A stretch of DNA of 64,000 nucleotides, from IMG/VR virus record IMGVR_UViG_3300025424_000296, positions 49,211 to 113,210 of that record. One strand, given 5' to 3'. Origin of the DNA: a virus. The translations under genes and the position numbers were made by a program. The notes under the pieces are model-generated. The model was not told the DNA's origin, did not search any database, and saw nothing but the letters and a program-made list of their open reading frames with translations. Numbering within the stretch: the first letter of the stretch is position 1; each line of letters opens with the position of its first letter. Shown here piece by piece: positions 2 to 18,281 of this stretch.

Positions 2-2812
2 CCAAGCAATGTTTTAATTACAACAGGTCGAGAAACATTTATAATTGGTGTAAATGGTAGCTTGACATTGCCAGCAGGTGGTGATATCAAAGACAGCAAT
101 AATAACAGTGTATTATTCAAAGCTAATCAAAGTGTTAACACAAACAGTTCAGTAATATTTTCTAATGTTATAGTATCTAGCAATTTAACAGTTCAAGGAA
201 CAACCACAACTGTTAATCAAAGTGTGTTGAATATTGCGGATAACAAAATAACATTGAATAGTGGACAAACAGGTACTCCCACACAAAATGGTACTTTTGA
301 AGTAGATCGTGGATCTAGCCCAAATACCAGCATACGTTGGAATGAGTCTACTGGAAAGTGGGAACAGACTCGTGACGGTAACACATATGTTGTATTACCT
401 ATTAACACATCAGAACTTGCAGAAGGTACAAACCTATACTTTACCAGTGCAAGAGCAAGAAGTGCGATTAGTGTTACAGGTAGCGGTAGCTACAATAGTT
501 CAACTGGTGTTATTACAATATCTGGAGGAGTTACCAGTGTTAATACACAAACCGGTGCAGTTACACTAACCACAACTAACATAAACGAAGGCACTAATTT
601 ATATTTCAGTAACGCAAGAGTAAGAAGTGCATTGGTAGCAGGCACCGGAATTAATTACAATAGCGGTACTGGCAGTATTAGTGTAATCAACGGTGTTTAT
701 ACAACGGACACAGGCACGGTTACAAATACCATGTTAGCTGGTAATATTGCTGTTTCTAAGATAACTGGACTAGCTGTATCAGCAACAACAGATACTACAA
801 ATGCTAGCAACATTACAAGCGGTACATTACCTAATGCAAGATTAAGTAGTATTCCTAATTCAGCTTTAGCTAACGTTGCAGTAACAATTGGTACAACTTC
901 AGTTAACCTAGGCTCTGCTTCAACAACATTAACTGGTTTAACCACAGTTAACATAGGATCAGCAGTTGCTAACTTGTATAATACTGCACCATTAAATATT
1001 GTAGGTAACAGTGCCGGCAATACCATAATTGGAGTCAATCTTATCAACACTGCGGGCGGTGCTGGTAGTGGTTCTGGTATAGACTTCTACACTTATACTG
1101 GATCCTCGAGTCCTCCAGAAGCAAGAATATTTGCTTACGACAACGGTGACTATTCGGCAAGTATTCAGTTTGCTAACAAGATACCTGGTGCCAATACCAA
1201 TGTTCTACAAACAAATATGACCTTGACTACCAGCGGTAACTTGAACGTTGTTGGTTCTGTTAGTGCTCCAAGTTTTGTAATTAACGGTCAGCCAACAAGT
1301 TTTGGTTTAGTAAACAGTTCTTACTTGTTTGCACAAAATAACGCTGATCAAACAGTAGGGCAAAATGTTGCAGTTAACTTCCAAGTTACAAATGCAAGTA
1401 ACGGCAGTCTTATAAACAAGATAAGCAATACACAAGTAACACTAACAGCAGGTAATACTTATAAACTAGAAGCTGTTGTGAGAAGAATGCAATCAAGTTC
1501 AACTTGGGGTGCATTCAGATGGTATGATGTAACCAATTCTACTTATGTTGGCTTAGAAGGATTTAGTGAAGTAGCAAATTCAAGCGGTGCTATTGGTTCA
1601 ACTGATGTAGCTACATACTATGTAACTCCTAGTGTTAATACCACATATGAACTAAGACAAACCACAGTTAATTCTGTTATTGCAAATGGTAATTATGTTT
1701 CAATGGAAATTACGCAAATCAATCCTGCAATAGCAGTTCAAGCAACTGCTACTGGCACATTGAATGCTAACTATGCCAAATATACAAGAACGACATCACA
1801 AAGTGTATCCGCTAATACGGTAGTTGTTTGTAACGTGGTAGAAAACGTATCAGGCAGCGATATATCAGTTAATACTTCAACTGGACAGGTAACATTAGTT
1901 GCAGGCAAAACTTATAGACTTCGAGGAACAGTAGGAACCATGGCAGGTAGCACAGTATCATCATTGCTGGGTTACTGCTGGTATAATGAAACTACCAGTT
2001 CTTGGATCGGTGAAGGTTCTGGGTGGGTAAGTCCAGGTAGCACCAACTGGAACTCGGCTGCTGGGGGCACTGCTGAAGCAATATTTACTGCTGCATCAAC
2101 CACAGTAGTATCATTTAGAATAATATCTGCAAATAATGTATCTAGTATAGGCGGAACGGCTGCAGACTGGGGATCACCATATGGTTATCCTTGGATTGAC
2201 ATAGAAGAGATTGGAACAGCTTTCAGCCTAAACACAATTAATACATTAACCACTACATCCAGTGTAAGTGTTGGTGGTAATTTATCTGTTGCAGGTAATA
2301 TAACTGGCACATTAAATGTTACTGCTCCAACTTTCCATGGTGTTACACCGTCGTGGTCACTGGGAGATTCAGCTTCAGCTGCTTGGTTCTTGTTAGGAAC
2401 ATGGAATACAACAAATGCTGGTACCTCATTATATATGAGATTGATAGCACACTGCGGGTACAATGCTGTAGCACTTCAAAATCAAGTAACCGAATTGATG
2501 TTTGTTACTAGTAATGCAAGTTCATACATTGCAGGTTCTAGTGGTAACTTCTATGCCAACGGATTAGCTAGTGCAAACAGTCGTTTGGGCACAGGTGGAA
2601 CAAGTCCTAGCTATCAAGCACCAAATTATTTTAGAATTGTTCAAGTATCTCTAACTCAGTATCAAATATATGCTTATTTTGGTTCGGCGTATATGAGAAA
2701 TAGTAACTACAGTATTCAAATCAGCTCAGGTGATACTTGGGTAGATGGCGGCGGCGGTGTAGTATCAGCACCTAGCGGCAACTATATAACTATTACTCCA
2801 ACATCATTCTAA
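2..2812 (+). CDS. Tail fibre / virion fibre protein, 5'-truncated by the window edge
   Basis: Frame is open from base 2. T/S/N/G-rich, with repeated EGTNLYFT/S motifs and two internally repeated domains (TQVTLTAGNTYKL / GQVTLVAGKTYRL). Confidence 0.8.
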   Translation, partial: PSNVLITTGRETFIIGVNGSLTLPAGGDIKDSNNNSVLFKANQSVNTNSSVIFSNVIVSSNLTVQGTTTTVNQSVLNIADNKITLNSGQTGTPTQNGTFEVDRGSSPNTSIRWNESTGKWEQTRDGNTYVVLPINTSELAEGTNLYFTSARARSAISVTGSGSYNSSTGVITISGGVTSVNTQTGAVTLTTTNINEGTNLYFSNARVRSALVAGTGINYNSGTGSISVINGVYTTDTGTVTNTMLAGNIAVSKITGLAVSATTDTTNASNITSGTLPNARLSSIPNSALANVAVTIGTTSVNLGSASTTLTGLTTVNIGSAVANLYNTAPLNIVGNSAGNTIIGVNLINTAGGAGSGSGIDFYTYTGSSSPPEARIFAYDNGDYSASIQFANKIPGANTNVLQTNMTLTTSGNLNVVGSVSAPSFVINGQPTSFGLVNSSYLFAQNNADQTVGQNVAVNFQVTNASNGSLINKISNTQVTLTAGNTYKLEAVVRRMQSSSTWGAFRWYDVTNSTYVGLEGFSEVANSSGAIGSTDVATYYVTPSVNTTYELRQTTVNSVIANGNYVSMEITQINPAIAVQATATGTLNANYAKYTRTTSQSVSANTVVVCNVVENVSGSDISVNTSTGQVTLVAGKTYRLRGTVGTMAGSTVSSLLGYCWYNETTSSWIGEGSGWVSPGSTNWNSAAGGTAEAIFTAASTTVVSFRIISANNVSSIGGTAADWGSPYGYPWIDIEEIGTAFSLNTINTLTTTSSVSVGGNLSVAGNITGTLNVTAPTFHGVTPSWSLGDSASAAWFLLGTWNTTNAGTSLYMRLIAHCGYNAVALQNQVTELMFVTSNASSYIAGSSGNFYANGLASANSRLGTGGTSPSYQAPNYFRIVQVSLTQYQIYAYFGSAYMRNSNYSIQISSGDTWVDGGGGVVSAPSGNYITITPTSF

Positions 2813-2927
2813 TATATTAAATTTTAATATAAGGATTTCAATGATATACAACATTGGTTAGTTAATAATAATCAATGTTGTATAAATATATCGTAAGCCA
2901 TTAATAAATTTAAAAATCAAGTGAACT

Positions 2928-3002
2928 ATGATTAGTGTTCAAAACGTAGCAGTGATCCGGGATCACAGCAGTTTAAACATTAATTTAAGATTCACCGGTT
3001 AA
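2928..3002 (+). CDS. Candidate 24-aa leader peptide MISVQNVAVIRDHSSLNINLRFTG
   Basis: Short ORF after TATAAATA (2881) that ends 5 nt before a terminator hairpin. Confidence 0.35.
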   Translation: MISVQNVAVIRDHSSLNINLRFTG

Positions 3003-3265: not shown

Positions 3266-3294
3266 TTGACATGATTAAATAAACATGATAAACT
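3266..3294 (+). promoter_or_regulatory. sigma70-like promoter
   Basis: TTGACA-17nt-TAAACT. Confidence 0.65.
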
Positions 3295-3490
3295 ATGCAG
3301 ATAACCACAAGGTTATGTTGAGATAGGGGAGTCTCATCACTCCGAAAAGATTAGTTATGAGTTCCGTGTGAGACACACAAGGCAGTGAATTCTTGTGTAC
3401 GTGAAAATAACAAGATCTTCTCAGCATTACCATGTGGTTGACACTTCTAATAAAGATGCTAATATAATCTATAGCAAAGGAAGTGATGTT

Positions 3491-3623: not shown

Positions 3624-3700
3624 GGTTGTGTAACTTGGCAGGCGGGATGACGTTCTCATATGTCCTCAAGTCGTAGGTTCCAGTTCTGACACCAAAACTA
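3624..3700 (+). pseudogene. Possible decayed tRNA (CAT-type loop)
   Basis: CTCATA loop, GTCGTAGGTTC T-arm remnant and tRNA-like spacing, but the stems are broken. Confidence 0.3.
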
Positions 3701-3709
3701 TTTTAATAC

Positions 3710-3738
3710 TTGACATAAAAATTACTGTAGAGTAACAT
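3710..3738 (+). promoter_or_regulatory. sigma70-like promoter, leaderless mRNA
   Basis: TTGACA-17nt-TAACAT with the ATG at 3744. Confidence 0.6.
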
Positions 3739-4316: not shown

Positions 4317-5771
4317 ATGATATATGACCTACTAATTGTCGGCGGCGGAATTAACGGCTGTGCTATAGCAAGAGATGCAGCAGGTCGTGGTTTACGAGTT
4401 CTGTTAGTCGAACAAAACGACCTAGCAAGTGCTACTTCTTCAGCATCAACAAAACTAATACACGGCGGCTTACGCTATCTTGAAACATACGATTTCAGAT
4501 TGGTACACGAAGCACTAGCAGAACGTGAAATATTACTGGCTAACGCACCTCACATCATTTGGCCCTTGAACTTTGTACTACCTCATGCAAAAGGACTGCG
4601 TCCAAAATGGATGATCAAACTTGGTCTTTGGTTATATGATCATCTAGCAACACGTAAAACATTACCCAAGTCTAAAATGGTAATGCTCCAGGGTAACTGG
4701 ATGGGCAAACCTCTTAAGAAAGAATACGAAATAGGGTTTACCTACGCAGATTGCTGGGTAGATGATGCTAGACTAGTTGTGCTTAATGCAGTTAATGCTA
4801 GAGAATATGGAGCGGAAATATGTGTAGGTACTCGTCTATTGAATGCTACGTCTCAAAATGGATCGTGGACTGCAACACTTAGTAATAGACGAGAAGTTCA
4901 ATCACGAGTACTGATTAATGCAGCAGGACCGTGGGTGTCTGAAGTACTTGATAATATAGAAATAAAATCTCATAAACATGTGAAATTAGTCAAGGGATCG
5001 CATATTGTAGTACATAGACAGTATCCGGGTAGTCATGCTTATATACTACAGAACAATGACGGACGTATTGCATTTGCTATTCCCTATGAAGGGGCATATA
5101 CATTAATTGGTACAACTGACTTTGTTCATAATGATGCACCCGGACCTGTTGCTATCAGTGATGTTGAAACTGATTATTTGATTGAGTTAGTTAATCACTT
5201 TTGGGACAAACCGATCGCTCACAGTGATATAGTCTGGAGTTATGCAGGATTGAGACCACTATATGATGACGGTTCGGTAAATGCATCAGTTGTAACTAGA
5301 GATTATGCGTTTGACCTTAATACAGATTCTGCACCGGTATTATCTATATTTGGTGGTAAGATTACAACTGCTCGTAGATTGGCAGAACATGCACTGGACG
5401 AGTTAGGCAAGTTTCTACCCAGTTGCGGAAACAAATGGACCAAGTCAGCAGCATTACCTGGCGGCGGTATAGATTTTGATAGATTTGTTAGACAACTACG
5501 TGAAGATAAACCTCTGATAGATTTTCACTTGTTATACAGACTTGCTCGTGCCTATGGTACACGAGCGTATGACCTATTAGGTGATGCTACAACAAATGAG
5601 GATCTTGGACGAGACTTTGGGCATGGATTGACACAAGCCGAAGTTGATTATTTAATTGCAAATGAGTGGGCAAGATCTGCTGACGATATTCTATGGAGAC
5701 GCAGTAAATTAGGATTGCACATGACTCAAGACGAGCAAGCAGTATTACGTGAATTTGTCAACAAAGAATAG
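4317..5771 (+). CDS. glpD: FAD-dependent glycerol-3-phosphate dehydrogenase
   Basis: GGGINGCAIARDAAGRG, SSASTKLIHGGLRYLE, DDARLV, GGKITT, DDILWRRSKLGL. Confidence 0.95.
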   Translation: MIYDLLIVGGGINGCAIARDAAGRGLRVLLVEQNDLASATSSASTKLIHGGLRYLETYDFRLVHEALAEREILLANAPHIIWPLNFVLPHAKGLRPKWMIKLGLWLYDHLATRKTLPKSKMVMLQGNWMGKPLKKEYEIGFTYADCWVDDARLVVLNAVNAREYGAEICVGTRLLNATSQNGSWTATLSNRREVQSRVLINAAGPWVSEVLDNIEIKSHKHVKLVKGSHIVVHRQYPGSHAYILQNNDGRIAFAIPYEGAYTLIGTTDFVHNDAPGPVAISDVETDYLIELVNHFWDKPIAHSDIVWSYAGLRPLYDDGSVNASVVTRDYAFDLNTDSAPVLSIFGGKITTARRLAEHALDELGKFLPSCGNKWTKSAALPGGGIDFDRFVRQLREDKPLIDFHLLYRLARAYGTRAYDLLGDATTNEDLGRDFGHGLTQAEVDYLIANEWARSADDILWRRSKLGLHMTQDEQAVLREFVNKE

Positions 5772-6015: not shown

Positions 6016-6062
6016 GGTTAACAGAGTTTTAAAAGATGCTAGTATATATGAGTAATAAATGT

Positions 6063-6142
6063 TTCCTTGTAGCTCAGTTGGTAAAGTAGTGACTGTTAAT
6101 CACTTAATCACTTAGTCGTTGGTTCGAGTCCAACCGGGGGAG
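6063..6142 (+). pseudogene. Degenerate tRNA-Asn(GTT) with 8-nt tandem duplication
   Basis: AGTGA-CTGTTAA-TCACT anticodon arm and GTTGG-TTCGAGT-CCAAC T arm. TAATCACT is duplicated, the D-stem has a mismatch and the gene ends ACA rather than CCA. Confidence 0.75.
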
Positions 6143-6196
6143 ACAAAATTAAATAATTTTGTGATTTGACTCAGTTACGTACATCACTTATAATCA

Positions 6197-13966: not shown

Positions 13967-14158
13967 ATGAATAAGATTTTAATCACACTAATAGTATCAC
14001 TATTTGCTACATCTGTTGTGGCACTAACCGTCATACCGGCAGCAGTAAAAACTTCAAATGATGTTGCAGTTTCCAAACCAGCTGCTAAATCCCACACAGG
14101 AACTTGGTTGCCACCAAAAGAAATACAAGACAAGGTTGCAAAAGAAAAACAAAAATAA
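13967..14158 (+). CDS. Small exported protein
   Basis: AGGAG RBS and signal peptide. Confidence 0.6.
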   Translation: MNKILITLIVSLFATSVVALTVIPAAVKTSNDVAVSKPAAKSHTGTWLPPKEIQDKVAKEKQK

Positions 14159-14172
14159 TATACTTTAAAGAT

Positions 14173-14248
14173 GCTGGTGTAGCTCAGTTGATAGAGCGCG
14201 GCATTAGTAATGCCGATGTCGGGAGTTTGAACCTCTCCACCAGCACCA
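14173..14248 (+). tRNA. tRNA-Thr(AGT)
   Basis: GCTGGTG/CACCAGC acceptor, CGGCA-TTAGTAA-TGCCG, CCA. Confidence 0.9.
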
Positions 14249-14253
14249 CCTTA

Positions 14254-14380
14254 GCCCTTGTAGCCCAACTGGCAGAGGCAGGAGACTTACGAGAAAGGGT
14301 TAAAGCCCATAACGGTGCGATTCCGGAATCTCGGAGATAAAATCTCCCAAGTATCAGTTCGAATCTGATCAAGGGCACCA
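14254..14380 (+). tRNA. tRNA-Leu(TAA) interrupted by a 50-nt insert in the anticodon
   Basis: Removing 14290-14339 restores a 77-nt cloverleaf: GCCCTTG/CAAGGGC, GGAGA-CTTAAAA-TCTCC, ATCAG-TTCGAAT-CTGAT, CCA. Confidence 0.85.
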
Positions 14381-14450
14381 GAAATTATAAGTCCGACCGC
14401 TGGTATCACAACTTCAATAAGTAGTATTAGTACAACTTGTGAGATTTTTA

Positions 14451-14630
14451 ATGAAAGACCGTGTAATTTTAACAACATTTTTGATTTTAATTCTAGCAAT
14501 GGCATTGGTAGGATGTAATTCAGTTGAGAACATTGATACTAACGGCTATTACACTCATAGCAACAGTATAACTCAACATGTTTGTCCGGTGCAGGTTAGA
14601 CATAACGTCGTTAAATGGTTACCATGCTGA
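14451..14630 (+). CDS. Small putative lipoprotein
   Basis: Hydrophobic stretch ending in the LVGC lipobox. Confidence 0.55.
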   Translation: MKDRVILTTFLILILAMALVGCNSVENIDTNGYYTHSNSITQHVCPVQVRHNVVKWLPC

Positions 14631-15095: not shown

Positions 15096-16319
15096 ATGGA
15101 AAAGTTATTAGAACTTGGAAATCATTATGTTAGTGATTTTATTAAACCTAACGATCAATTGAGAAATGCCAACAAGTACAGTCTAGACGTATATTTAGAT
15201 GATGCAATTGGTGCAGCTCGTCTTAAAGAGACCCCGCCAGCAGAAAGTATGTGGGGGCAGTATTGGTATCGTTCTGGTATCAATGCCAGTATGACCAAAC
15301 AGTTGGGTCAGATCGTTGATGAAATATCAGGTAGAATTAAACTAAATGACGGCGACATTTGGTTAGATATTGCTTGTAATGACGGAACACTGTTAAAGCA
15401 ACTTCCTGATAATTTAATCAAGTTGGGGATTGATCCAGCTGATGACAGTTACCATGCAGAAAGTAGCAGGGTTGCCACAAAGGTTGTACAGGACTATTTC
15501 AGTGAGTCGGCATATCAACGCACAGGGTACGGTGATCGCAAGGCCAAGGTAATAACATGTATAGCTATGTTTTACGATTTAGATAATCCCCGTCCATTTA
15601 TCAGAGACATACATAAAGTATTAGATGACAATGGTGTTTTTGTTGTTCAAATGAGTTATACACCCTTAATGCTTAAACAGTTGGCATTTGATAATATTTG
15701 TCACGAGCATGTTTATTATTATAGTCTTACCAGTATCAAGAGACTATTTGAGTCTGAAGGATTTGTTGTACGTGATTGTAGTCTAAATGATACTAATGGT
15801 GGTAGTTTCCGAGTATACCTACAGAAGAATACCAGCGACTACACCAAGTTTTCTACTGCACCACAGCGTGATGTGTTTGACTTCCAGGTCGAAAGTATTC
15901 TCAAGTTAGAAGCTACAAAATGGGATATTGGTAATCCTGATCTTTGGATTAGTTTTGGTAATCAAATAAACGCTCTTAAGACTCAAGTATTAGAATTTCT
16001 ACACCAGGCTAAACGTGAAGGCAAGACTGTATATGGATATGGTGCCAGCACCAAGGGCAATACACTACTACAATTGTTTGGAATTGATAATACTTTAGTA
16101 ACTGCTATTGCAGAACGCAGCCCATATAAGTTTGGATTACAAACCGTTGGTACTAACATTCCTATAGTAAGTGAAGAAGAAATGCGAGCTGCAAAGCCAG
16201 ACTATCTCTTAGTTCTACCTTGGCACTTTATTAATGAATTTGTTGCTAGAGAACAAGAGTTTATATCAGGTGGTGGTAAATTAGTAGTACCATGTCCGCG
16301 CTTTGAGATTTTTGGATAA
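15096..16319 (+). CDS. NDP-hexose C-methyltransferase (TcaB9/NovU-like)
   Basis: LDIACNDGTLL, FDNICHEHVYYY, NGGS, YGASTKGNTLL, LVLPWHF. Confidence 0.88.
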   Translation: MEKLLELGNHYVSDFIKPNDQLRNANKYSLDVYLDDAIGAARLKETPPAESMWGQYWYRSGINASMTKQLGQIVDEISGRIKLNDGDIWLDIACNDGTLLKQLPDNLIKLGIDPADDSYHAESSRVATKVVQDYFSESAYQRTGYGDRKAKVITCIAMFYDLDNPRPFIRDIHKVLDDNGVFVVQMSYTPLMLKQLAFDNICHEHVYYYSLTSIKRLFESEGFVVRDCSLNDTNGGSFRVYLQKNTSDYTKFSTAPQRDVFDFQVESILKLEATKWDIGNPDLWISFGNQINALKTQVLEFLHQAKREGKTVYGYGASTKGNTLLQLFGIDNTLVTAIAERSPYKFGLQTVGTNIPIVSEEEMRAAKPDYLLVLPWHFINEFVAREQEFISGGGKLVVPCPRFEIFG

Positions 16320-18204: not shown

Positions 18205-18281
18205 AGCGGGGTAGAGCAGAAGCAGCTCGCTTGGTTCATACCCAAGAGGTCGTGGTAGAGCATTTCCCACCCCCGCTTCCA
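18205..18281 (+). tRNA. tRNA-Met(CAT), initiator-like D stem, aberrant T arm
   Basis: AGCGGGG/CCCCGCT, GAGC/GCTC D stem, CTTGG-TTCATAC-CCAAG, CCA; T loop lacks TTC. Confidence 0.75.

Follow-up and report, generated by a model that had tools for sequence, protein, structure and literature searches.

A tRNA-shaped 50-nt insert in the anticodon loop of a phage tRNA-Leu(UAA) gene is a candidate protein-spliced mini-intron

RESULTS

The window contains an interrupted tRNA-Leu gene

The DNA analysed here (the window) is the final 64 kb of a 113-kb virus record of IMG/VR. The completeness of the record is estimated at 28%, which makes it a fragment of a phage genome of ~400 kb, and its G+C content is 37.5%. 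A search of the whole window with the Rfam tRNA model (RF00005) calls a tRNA at 14254–14377 (44 bits, E = 4.5e-6), and the alignment contains a single insertion of ~53 nt, located in the anticodon loop. In its default mode ARAGORN calls no tRNA at 14254–14380, while with introns allowed it reports a 77-nt tRNA-Leu(taa) with a 50-nt intron.

The features of the locus are listed in Table 1. The 5′ exon comprises the 5′ strand of the acceptor stem, a 3-bp D stem with an 11-nt D loop, the anticodon-stem strand GGAGA, and the loop nucleotides C32, U33, U34 and A35. The 3′ exon continues the loop with A36, A37 and A38, followed by the anticodon-stem strand UCUCC, a 5-nt variable loop (CAAGU), the T arm AUCAG-UUCGAAU-CUGAU, the 3′ strand of the acceptor stem, a discriminator A and an encoded CCA. 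There is no terminator-like site between the upstream tRNA-Thr(AGU) gene and the interrupted gene, and the two are probably carried by the same precursor transcript. No other tRNA-Leu gene is found within the 113 kb, so that the interrupted gene is the sole tRNA-Leu gene there. The initial annotation described TTA as common in this phage; in its long ORFs UUA is indeed the commonest Leu codon, with a 40% share.

Elsewhere in the window, a CAU-anticodon tRNA at 18205–18278 (+) has an over-long T loop of 11 nt and is detected by Rfam (42 bits) and missed by ARAGORN, and an 83-nt tRNA-Asn(GUU) at 6062–6144 (+) has an extra short stem in its variable region, which is unusual for Asn. The only sizeable nucleotide match of the region among deposited phage genomes lies at 15541–15815 (+), part of a C-methyltransferase gene, with 73.8% DNA identity to the 735-kb uncultured huge phage LR756501/LR756503. 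Used as a query for relatives, the flanking GT17 protein retrieved none.

Table 1. Features of the interrupted tRNA-Leu locus (window coordinates)
Feature	Position	Strand	Evidence or remark
tRNA-Thr(AGU), neighbouring gene	14173–14248	+	Ends 5 nt before the interrupted tRNA-Leu
tRNA-Leu(UAA), 5′ exon	14254–14289	+	Rfam alignment, ARAGORN cloverleaf
Predicted intron, 50 nt	14290–14339	+	Register 35/36 by homology with the L041 tRNA-Met(CAU); deletion series
Closing stem, 5′ strand CGAGA	14290–14294	+	Pairs with 14329–14333; 5/5 pairs change on both sides, five homologues
Hairpin 1, GGGU-UAAA-GCCC, D-arm-like position	14297–14308	+	100% paired; two pairs with double changes
Hairpin 2, CGG-UGCGAUU-CCG, 3-bp stem and 7-nt T-loop-like loop	14313–14325	+	100% paired; two double-change pairs
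Closing stem, 3′ strand UCUCG, and single-stranded 6-nt tail GAGAUA	14329–14333 and 14334–14339	+	Alignment A4
tRNA-Leu(UAA), 3′ exon	14340–14380	+	Rfam alignment, ARAGORN, family alignment

The short variable arm is shared by a phage tRNA-Leu family

BLAST searches with the 5′ exon (positions 1–36) retrieve annotated short phage tRNA-Leu genes, with up to 100% identity over 29 nt, from many cultured phages, among them Pseudomonas phages PHB09 and 16Q, Synechococcus phage S-CREM1, Felix-O1-like coliphages and Acinetobacter phages, and the 3′ exon also matches some of the same cultured-phage genes. The matched genes are 73–77 nt long with a 5-nt variable loop, and the closest homologues read ...ACU UAAAAUCU... 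The family has a D-arm signature, UAGCCCAAY(N)GGYAGAGRCA, which the window gene shares. We scanned IMG/VR, metagenome contigs and prokaryote contigs for this signature. All uninterrupted carriers have a Leu anticodon (49/49 in viral and metagenome contigs, 45/45 in prokaryote contigs), none has a Val anticodon, and all but one, of 96 nt, are 73–79 nt long.

The long variable arm usual for Leu had been noted as missing from the window gene. The absence is real, but it is not unusual in this setting, being the rule among the 49 and 45 uninterrupted Leu signature carriers; it characterises a large family of phage tRNA-Leu genes rather than being an oddity of the window gene. Short tRNA-Leu genes of 73–79 nt are common in cultured phages and also occur in many Actinomycetota genome contigs (L180–L232 are the prokaryote contigs).

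Homologous inserts occur in tRNA-Leu and tRNA-Met genes of other phages

We searched viral and metagenome contigs with a pattern consisting of a D arm, 46–76 nt of any sequence and a T arm. The pattern retrieved ~25 distinct interrupted short tRNA-Leu genes with several classes of insert. Four inserts of 50–51 nt, in the metagenomic phage contigs L093, L110 (two inserts) and L041, are homologues of the window insert (the window class). They interrupt short tRNA-Leu genes (L093 and L110), a type II tRNA-Leu(CAA) gene (L110, 869–936) and a tRNA-Met(CAU) gene (L041, 5172–5238). Covariance model R1, built from four sequences (the window insert, the L093 insert and both L110 inserts), detects the L041 insert, which was absent from the training set, at 27 bits (E = 2e-4 to 2e-3), and ARAGORN reports the same insert as a 50-nt intron in tRNA-Met(CAU). 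A hand-written descriptor, run on 1.25 Mb of collected DNA, returned the four window-class introns then known and two unrelated matches. The initial annotation held that a genuine intron should have homologues with covarying stems in other phage tRNAs, and four such inserts besides that of the window are now in hand.

In L041, the interrupted tRNA-Met(CAU) occupies 5145–5271 (+) and is split after A35; the same 6-kb locus also contains a short tRNA-Leu with a plain 29-nt hairpin insert (3631–3733), so that two insert types occur in one phage. The window-class introns of the 97-kb contig L110 lie in the type II tRNA-Leu(CAA) at 823–963 (−), with the tail ACCAAA, and in the short tRNA-Leu at 3279–3405 (−). 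Under the homologous register the latter would have the anticodon UCA, which reads UGA, and not UAA; the gene packing of L093 and L110 looks normal under code 11 in a check for TGA recoding. A tblastx comparison of L093 and L110 with the window record found no shared genes, and, to judge from this comparison, their phages are not close kin of the window phage.

The tRNA-Met homologue sets the splice register

The initial annotation proposed that removal of 14290–14339 leaves a perfect 77-nt tRNA, with boundaries ambiguous by 2 nt, and a deletion series upholds both points. Specifically, deletion of 14288–14337, 14289–14338 or 14290–14339 gives the identical 77-nt product with the loop CUUAAAA, while deletion of 14291–14340 or 14292–14341 gives the loops CUUACAA and CUUACGA, respectively, both of which read Val (UAC). 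In the tRNA-Met(CAU) of L041 the junction of the homologous 50-nt intron is unambiguous, between A35 and U36, and model R1 aligns the window and L041 introns end to end. We assign the window intron to 14290–14339 because the homologous tRNA-Met intron fixes the junction at 35/36 (the slash marks the splice site). The predicted spliced product has the exon–exon junction GGAGACUUAAAAUCUCC and the junction 17-mer GGAGACTTAAAATCTCC.

A register one or two bases further 3′ would yield tRNA-Val(UAC) instead of tRNA-Leu(UAA). CUUACAA is a normal tRNA-Val(UAC) loop, and the short variable arm and A73 of the window tRNA are as in Val tRNAs, E. coli tRNA-Val being an example of both. However, Leu anticodons in all uninterrupted carriers of the D-arm signature, the Leu reading of the closest homologues and the 35/36 junction of the tRNA-Met intron, equivalent to 14289/14290 here, lead us to reject this register as very improbable, and the Leu register is strongly preferred on the sequences compared.

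The insert folds as a three-way junction with covarying helices

The fold given in the initial annotation, in which a closing stem CGAGA/UCUCG encloses the two hairpins of Table 1, is reproduced exactly by the minimum-free-energy (MFE) structure of the core (14290–14333) and is supported by covariation. An invariant AA (14295–14296) directly follows the 5′ strand of the closing stem, and the loop of hairpin 1 is closed by an invariant U·G pair (5/5 sequences). Hairpin 2 is flanked by AUAA (14309–14312) and GAA (14326–14328), and its loop has the family consensus U-K-C-R-A-W-U. The GAGAUA tail sits where L110b has ACCAAA and where the relatives with a 7-bp stem, described below, have ACCA.

Across the window class, the fold is a three-way junction that consists of a 5-bp closing stem, AA, a 4-bp hairpin, a 3–4-nt linker (AWWA in 4/5), a 3-bp hairpin (4 bp in L041), RAA (UA in L041), the 3′ strand of the closing stem and a non-conserved tail of 5–6 nt; only a handful of the unpaired bases are invariant. 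The likeness to a tRNA elbow without its anticodon arm, drawn initially from the window copy, is supported by the closing stem together with the D-arm-like and T-loop-like hairpins. In the precursor, the anticodon stem is followed by an asymmetric internal loop, with 4 nt on the 5′ side and 9 nt on the 3′ side, and then by the 5-bp closing helix. Both splice sites are located on the same side of this helix, in the 4/9-nt internal loop.

In alignment A4 (five sequences from four lineages, the alignment being fitted to the model), 98.8% of cells are paired, and changes on both sides occur in 13 of 17 pairs, including 9 of the 12 pairs within the intron's own helices. None of 500 shuffles scores as high, and slid registers are at most 53% paired. 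A MAFFT alignment made before any model is 95.6% paired, with eight pairs changed on both sides. The MFE structures of the individual intron cores have the window-class shape in all cases except L110b. The thermodynamic stability of the window fold is unexceptional (z = −1.31; 18 of 200 shuffles fold as well), and the case for the fold rests on covariation with homologues and not on thermodynamics. Selection on the structured insert, suggested earlier on the ground of the intact flanks, gains support from the conserved, covarying fold and the intact exons, and the idea of an intron remnant is contradicted by the covariation.

The 3′ end of the insert had also been described as an alternative partner (GGAGAT) for the 3′ strand of the anticodon stem. 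The resulting hairpin, GGAGAU-AAA-AUCUCC, does exist and is part of the MFE structure of the whole precursor (−39.0 versus −34.5 kcal/mol), but the pairing is not conserved among the homologues. We therefore give little weight to the associated proposal of a conditional switch.

Other insert classes share the anticodon loop as their site

Besides the window class, the interrupted tRNA genes contain a class of inserts with a 7-bp stem (L038/L136/L146, L043, L044/L046/L186 and L057/L098). The layout is a 7-bp stem, a linker of 12–15 nt, a 5-bp hairpin (7-nt loop) set directly against the 3′ strand of the stem, and an ACCA tail. These inserts extend exactly from the first base of the stem to the end of ACCA, and they are placed after C32 or after U34 (32/33 or 34/35). 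The closing stems vary yet stay paired (ACAGGAT, GTAGAAT, ATAGGAT, GTCTGAT, CGTAAAT, GTGGAGT and GCGAAAT). In size this class corresponds exactly to a minihelix substrate of RNase P (7 + 5 bp + ACCA): the 5′ splice site falls at the RNase P site and the 3′ splice site at the end of the CCA, as processing by tRNA end-maturation enzymes would predict. A 7-bp stem on a 5-bp T arm with an NCCA tail is fully present only in the class of L038, L043, L044, L057 and L186. The window copy departs from that geometry: its closing stem has 5 bp and its T-like stem 3 bp, 3 nt separate the two, and its tail is GAGAUA.

A further class consists of plain hairpins of 27–34 nt with no tRNA-like features (L041, L051, L081, L103 and L132). 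Short tRNA-Leu-like genes in L036/L047/L122, L053, L061 and L058/L063/L158/L071 carry either long insertions of a different organisation or abnormal anticodon arms and fit none of the described insert classes.

A scan of prokaryotes, with one genome for each of 185,579 species, found a single interrupted tRNA-Leu, in L186 (JAEDGC010000001.1, 124,720 bp, 'Bacilli bacterium MAG100'). L186 is probably a phage genome binned into a metagenome-assembled genome, its size and tRNA being as in the phages of L044/L046, and it may hint at the host. Such inserts in the anticodon loop appear to be a phage feature.

The loop nucleotides that flank every insert sum to the canonical 7-nt loop of the isotype: CUUAAAA, CUCAAAA or CUCAUAA. 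This restoration occurs in three tRNA bodies and holds across the insertion points 32/33 and 34/35 too. We would expect such a pattern at several insertion points only where the exons are ligated into a working tRNA, and we regard it as the strongest argument that the sequences offer for splicing.

The insert matches no known intron, ribozyme or repeat

Our results confirm the initial reading that the insert is neither a group I intron nor an archaeal-type bulge-helix-bulge (BHB) intron. A length of 50 nt leaves no room for P3–P8 of a group I intron, whose usual length exceeds 200 nt. In the three allowed registers the last intron base is A, U or A, and never G; two of these registers allow U at −1. 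There is no bulge-helix-bulge; instead, the precursor has the 4/9-nt internal loop and 5-bp helix, with no 4-bp helix between the splice sites. EndA (PF01974) is absent from the window record and from four other intron-bearing phage contigs, and archaeal controls are positive. Rfam cmscan of 14100–14500 at E ≤ 10 returned the tRNA and two chance snoRNA matches, with no intron or ribozyme family, which rejects the known self-cleaving ribozymes (hammerhead, twister, pistol, hatchet and hairpin). For the hammerhead, furthermore, the junction strands AA, AUAA and GAA lack the CUGAUGA core.

The 113-kb record holds no second copy of the insert. In IMG/VR, exact scanning for the insert core gave 0 matches, and a class-specific 5′-junction pattern and a T-like-hairpin pattern gave 0 matches each. 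The same anticodon stem with any 35–60-nt insert gave 30 matches, none in a tRNA and all attributable to chance. A dispersed MITE or REP repeat is rejected on the single copy in 113 kb and the absence of the core patterns from IMG/VR, only the TA flanks and the 5-nt inverted ends being similar. An assembly artefact is excluded by the independent homologues in unrelated contigs.

An RNA ligase is found in five of six near-complete phage contigs with interrupted tRNA-Leu genes

The initial annotation raised the possibility of an rtcB or RNA ligase gene in this phage, and none was found in the available 28% of the genome. In particular, profile searches of the record gave no Rnl1, Rnl2/Rnl5, RtcB, EndA or AAA_33 kinase above cut-off, and neither a kinase-phosphatase nor a splicing endonuclease was found in that 28%. 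In a set of five intron-bearing phage contigs, RtcB, Rnl1 and EndA were not found. A DraRnl/Rnl5-type RNA ligase (PF21189 plus PF09414) is present in five of six near-complete contigs with an interrupted tRNA-Leu and in one of six comparable contigs with uninterrupted tRNA-Leu genes; this association is suggestive but is confounded by relatedness, since a single intron class and a single anticodon stem are common to most of the ligase-bearing contigs. Rnl5 enzymes are known for the sealing of nicked duplexes, not of nicked loops. In L169, which belongs to the phage of L044, an Rnl5-type RNA ligase gene (PHA02142 OB domain plus RNA_ligase) at 889–2079 (+) is followed by a LAGLIDADG-like homing-endonuclease ORF at 2347–2961 (+).

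DISCUSSION

Proposed route of intron removal

We hold, with moderate confidence, that 14290–14339 is a genuine, selected intron of a tRNA-shaped mini-intron family and is removed by proteins, most likely by an RNase P-type cut and an RNA ligase. We infer both the splicing of the insert and the enzymes involved. An intron of 50 nt has no room for a self-splicing core, and proteins must therefore remove it after transcription.

In the proposed route, the precursor would fold as a normal short tRNA-Leu whose anticodon stem continues into the three-way junction of the intron. The first cut, exactly at the 5′ end of the closing helix, would come from a nuclease that recognises a helix and elbow of tRNA-like shape, for which RNase P is the leading candidate; a second cut would be made at the end of the single-stranded tail; and an RNA ligase would seal the resulting nick in the anticodon loop. 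The product would be a 77-nt tRNA-Leu(UAA) that reads UUA, the favoured Leu codon of the phage. Excision by tRNA-processing nucleases and a ligase, one of several ideas put forward initially, remains the most economical, and it agrees well with those relatives that combine a 7-bp stem with a 5-bp T arm and ACCA. For the window intron itself, we rate the RNase P step at clearly below an even chance: its short closing and T-like stems, its 3-nt spacer and its lack of ACCA make it a poor match to the canonical RNase P minihelix. We know of no enzyme for the precise 3′ cut.

Alternative explanations

The insert may instead be spliced by a dedicated phage or host endonuclease other than RNase P, with subsequent healing and sealing. 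Candidates are an anticodon-nuclease-like enzyme, which would leave cyclic-phosphate and 5′-OH ends, and RNase III or RNase E, whose targets would be the two stacked helices together with the A/U-rich tail. The window class has a closing stem of only 5 bp and a tail without CCA, and the sequence around its 3′ splice site (GAGAUA/AAAU) is single-stranded and rich in A and U, all of which would suit such an enzyme. Plain 27–34-nt hairpins interrupt the same tRNA family, which suggests that several excision signals may exist. There is also a precedent for resealing, as T4 Pnkp and Rnl1 are an established system for the repair of anticodon-loop breaks. However, the five intron-bearing phage contigs lack RtcB, Rnl1 and EndA, and a dedicated endonuclease leaves the 12-bp minihelix and ACCA geometry of the 7-bp-stem class unexplained. 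We consider this explanation unlikely, though it fares best among the alternatives.

It is more doubtful still that the insert is retained, and that the transcript serves as a stable, non-decoding, tRNA-scaffolded small RNA, for example as a decoy for a host defence protein that binds or cleaves tRNA. This explanation would account for the conservation of the fold and of several loop and junction bases, and the T-loop-like module is of a kind that commonly serves as a docking surface for protein or RNA. Selection for a scaffold, however, would not require the isotype-correct 7-nt loop to be rebuilt in every case, across three tRNA bodies and several points of insertion. The same insert, moreover, lies in otherwise functional-looking Leu(UAA), Leu(CAA) and Met(CAU) genes, and it interrupts the only tRNA-Leu in the 113 kb of the window record, although UUA is the top Leu codon. 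A tRNase decoy was also among the initial proposals, and we have no support for it.

That the insert is a small mobile or selfish element of the MITE or REP type, flanked by TA, which has inactivated the gene and left a decaying pseudogene, has only a slim chance of being correct. TA at both ends, the short inverted termini CGAGA/TCTCG and the occurrence of one insert family in different tRNA genes, which implies mobility, speak for it. Against it, a second copy is found neither in the 113 kb nor in IMG/VR outside the anticodon loops of tRNA genes, the exons are intact and agree with the consensus of their family, and the stems covary rather than decay. Furthermore, the inserts occur only in anticodon loops, where precise restoration of the loop is always possible.

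A degenerate or miniature self-splicing intron (group I-like or another ribozyme) is compatible in position with U34/A35, where the group I intron of cyanobacterial tRNA-Leu(UAA) is inserted, but the size, the terminal A or U in place of G, the negative Rfam search and the mere handful of invariant unpaired bases, like the homologues in unrelated contigs that speak against an assembly artefact, leave either reading with a negligible probability.

Returning to the preferred reading of a protein-removed intron, it is conceivable, and we advance it tentatively, that elbow-shaped mobile introns of ~50 nt have spread between the anticodon loops of different tRNA genes and are cut out by RNase P plus a 3′ nuclease, both of them tRNA end-processing enzymes of the cell itself, with an RNA ligase to join the exons, a pathway undescribed in bacteria. 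If this is true, the maturation of key phage tRNAs depends on RNA repair, and the intron possibly shields these tRNAs from host anticodon nucleases until they are spliced.

Comparison with known systems

The group I intron of cyanobacterial and plastid tRNA-Leu(UAA) is found in the same isotype and the same loop, and one of the allowed registers of the window insert (U34/A35) corresponds to the same site. It exceeds 200 nt, however, whereas the window insert has 50 nt, no catalytic core and no terminal G. The host genes also differ, the tRNA with the cyanobacterial intron being a type II cellular Leu and that of the window a short, type-I-like Leu.

Archaeal and eukaryal BHB introns, which are cut by EndA or TSEN and joined by RtcB or Trl1, are likewise small, lie in the anticodon loop and leave exons that are held by the tRNA body. 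They are defined by a 3-nt bulge, a 4-bp helix and a 3-nt bulge at 37/38, whereas the window insert has no such motif and is located at 35/36.

In MALAT1 mascRNA and the t-elements of plant mitochondria, which are processed by RNase P and RNase Z, a mini tRNA-shaped module within a longer RNA defines the cleavage sites, and our 7-bp-stem relatives match the 12-bp minihelix and ACCA. mascRNA and t-elements mark the ends of transcripts; their cleavage is not known to be followed by ligation, and neither kind is known from the inside of another tRNA. The T4 system of PrrC cleavage, Pnkp healing and Rnl1 sealing demonstrates the resealing of a broken anticodon loop by a phage ligase, but it repairs damage and does not remove an encoded insert; where related phages here have a ligase, it is of the DraRnl/Rnl5 type.

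To our knowledge, bacteria and their viruses are thought to have no tRNA introns, self-splicing group I introns aside, and no enzymes for their removal. A 50-nt insert that is not self-splicing, with a structure conserved across unrelated phage contigs and in three tRNAs, therefore implies protein-based cutting and rejoining of tRNA in bacterial cells, by a route not yet characterised. Furthermore, since ARAGORN in its default mode misses interrupted genes, the tRNA complements of large phages are under-counted.

The sole precedent that we found in the literature is the report on Lak megaphages (Devoto et al. 2019, Nat Microbiol, PMC6784885), and we found no paper on the mechanism. That report described 'enigmatic' tRNA introns, stated that introns in phage tRNAs were then unreported, and noted that one intron possibly itself encodes a tRNA; it reported no self-splicing core and identical copies across phage genomes (PMC6784885, Fig. 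4 and Table S6). The term 'new intron class' in the initial annotation was therefore an overstatement, these introns having been published in 2019 (PMC6784885). The Lak introns and the window intron are both anticodon-loop inserts in tRNA genes of very large phages. The 93-nt tRNA-Tyr intron of Lak (Table S6, PMC6784885) ends in a 7-bp stem that directly abuts a canonical T arm, and the window intron shares with the Lak type its place in the anticodon loop of a phage tRNA, the rebuilt canonical 7-nt loop, a closing helix that starts at the 5′ splice site and a 7-nt T-loop-like hairpin. The Lak introns differ in being longer (93 nt in Tyr) and in interrupting Tyr, Thr, Phe and Gly tRNAs of Prevotella phages with an alternative code, whereas the window intron packs a three-way junction into 50 nt, has a closing stem of 5 bp and lacks a CCA-like tail. 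The Lak paper (PMC6784885) reported neither a covariation analysis nor a family across environments. Our analysis adds this compact variant, places it in three kinds of tRNA gene, for Leu(UAA), Leu(CAA) and Met(CAU), in phages that are unrelated, and supports its fold by covariation.
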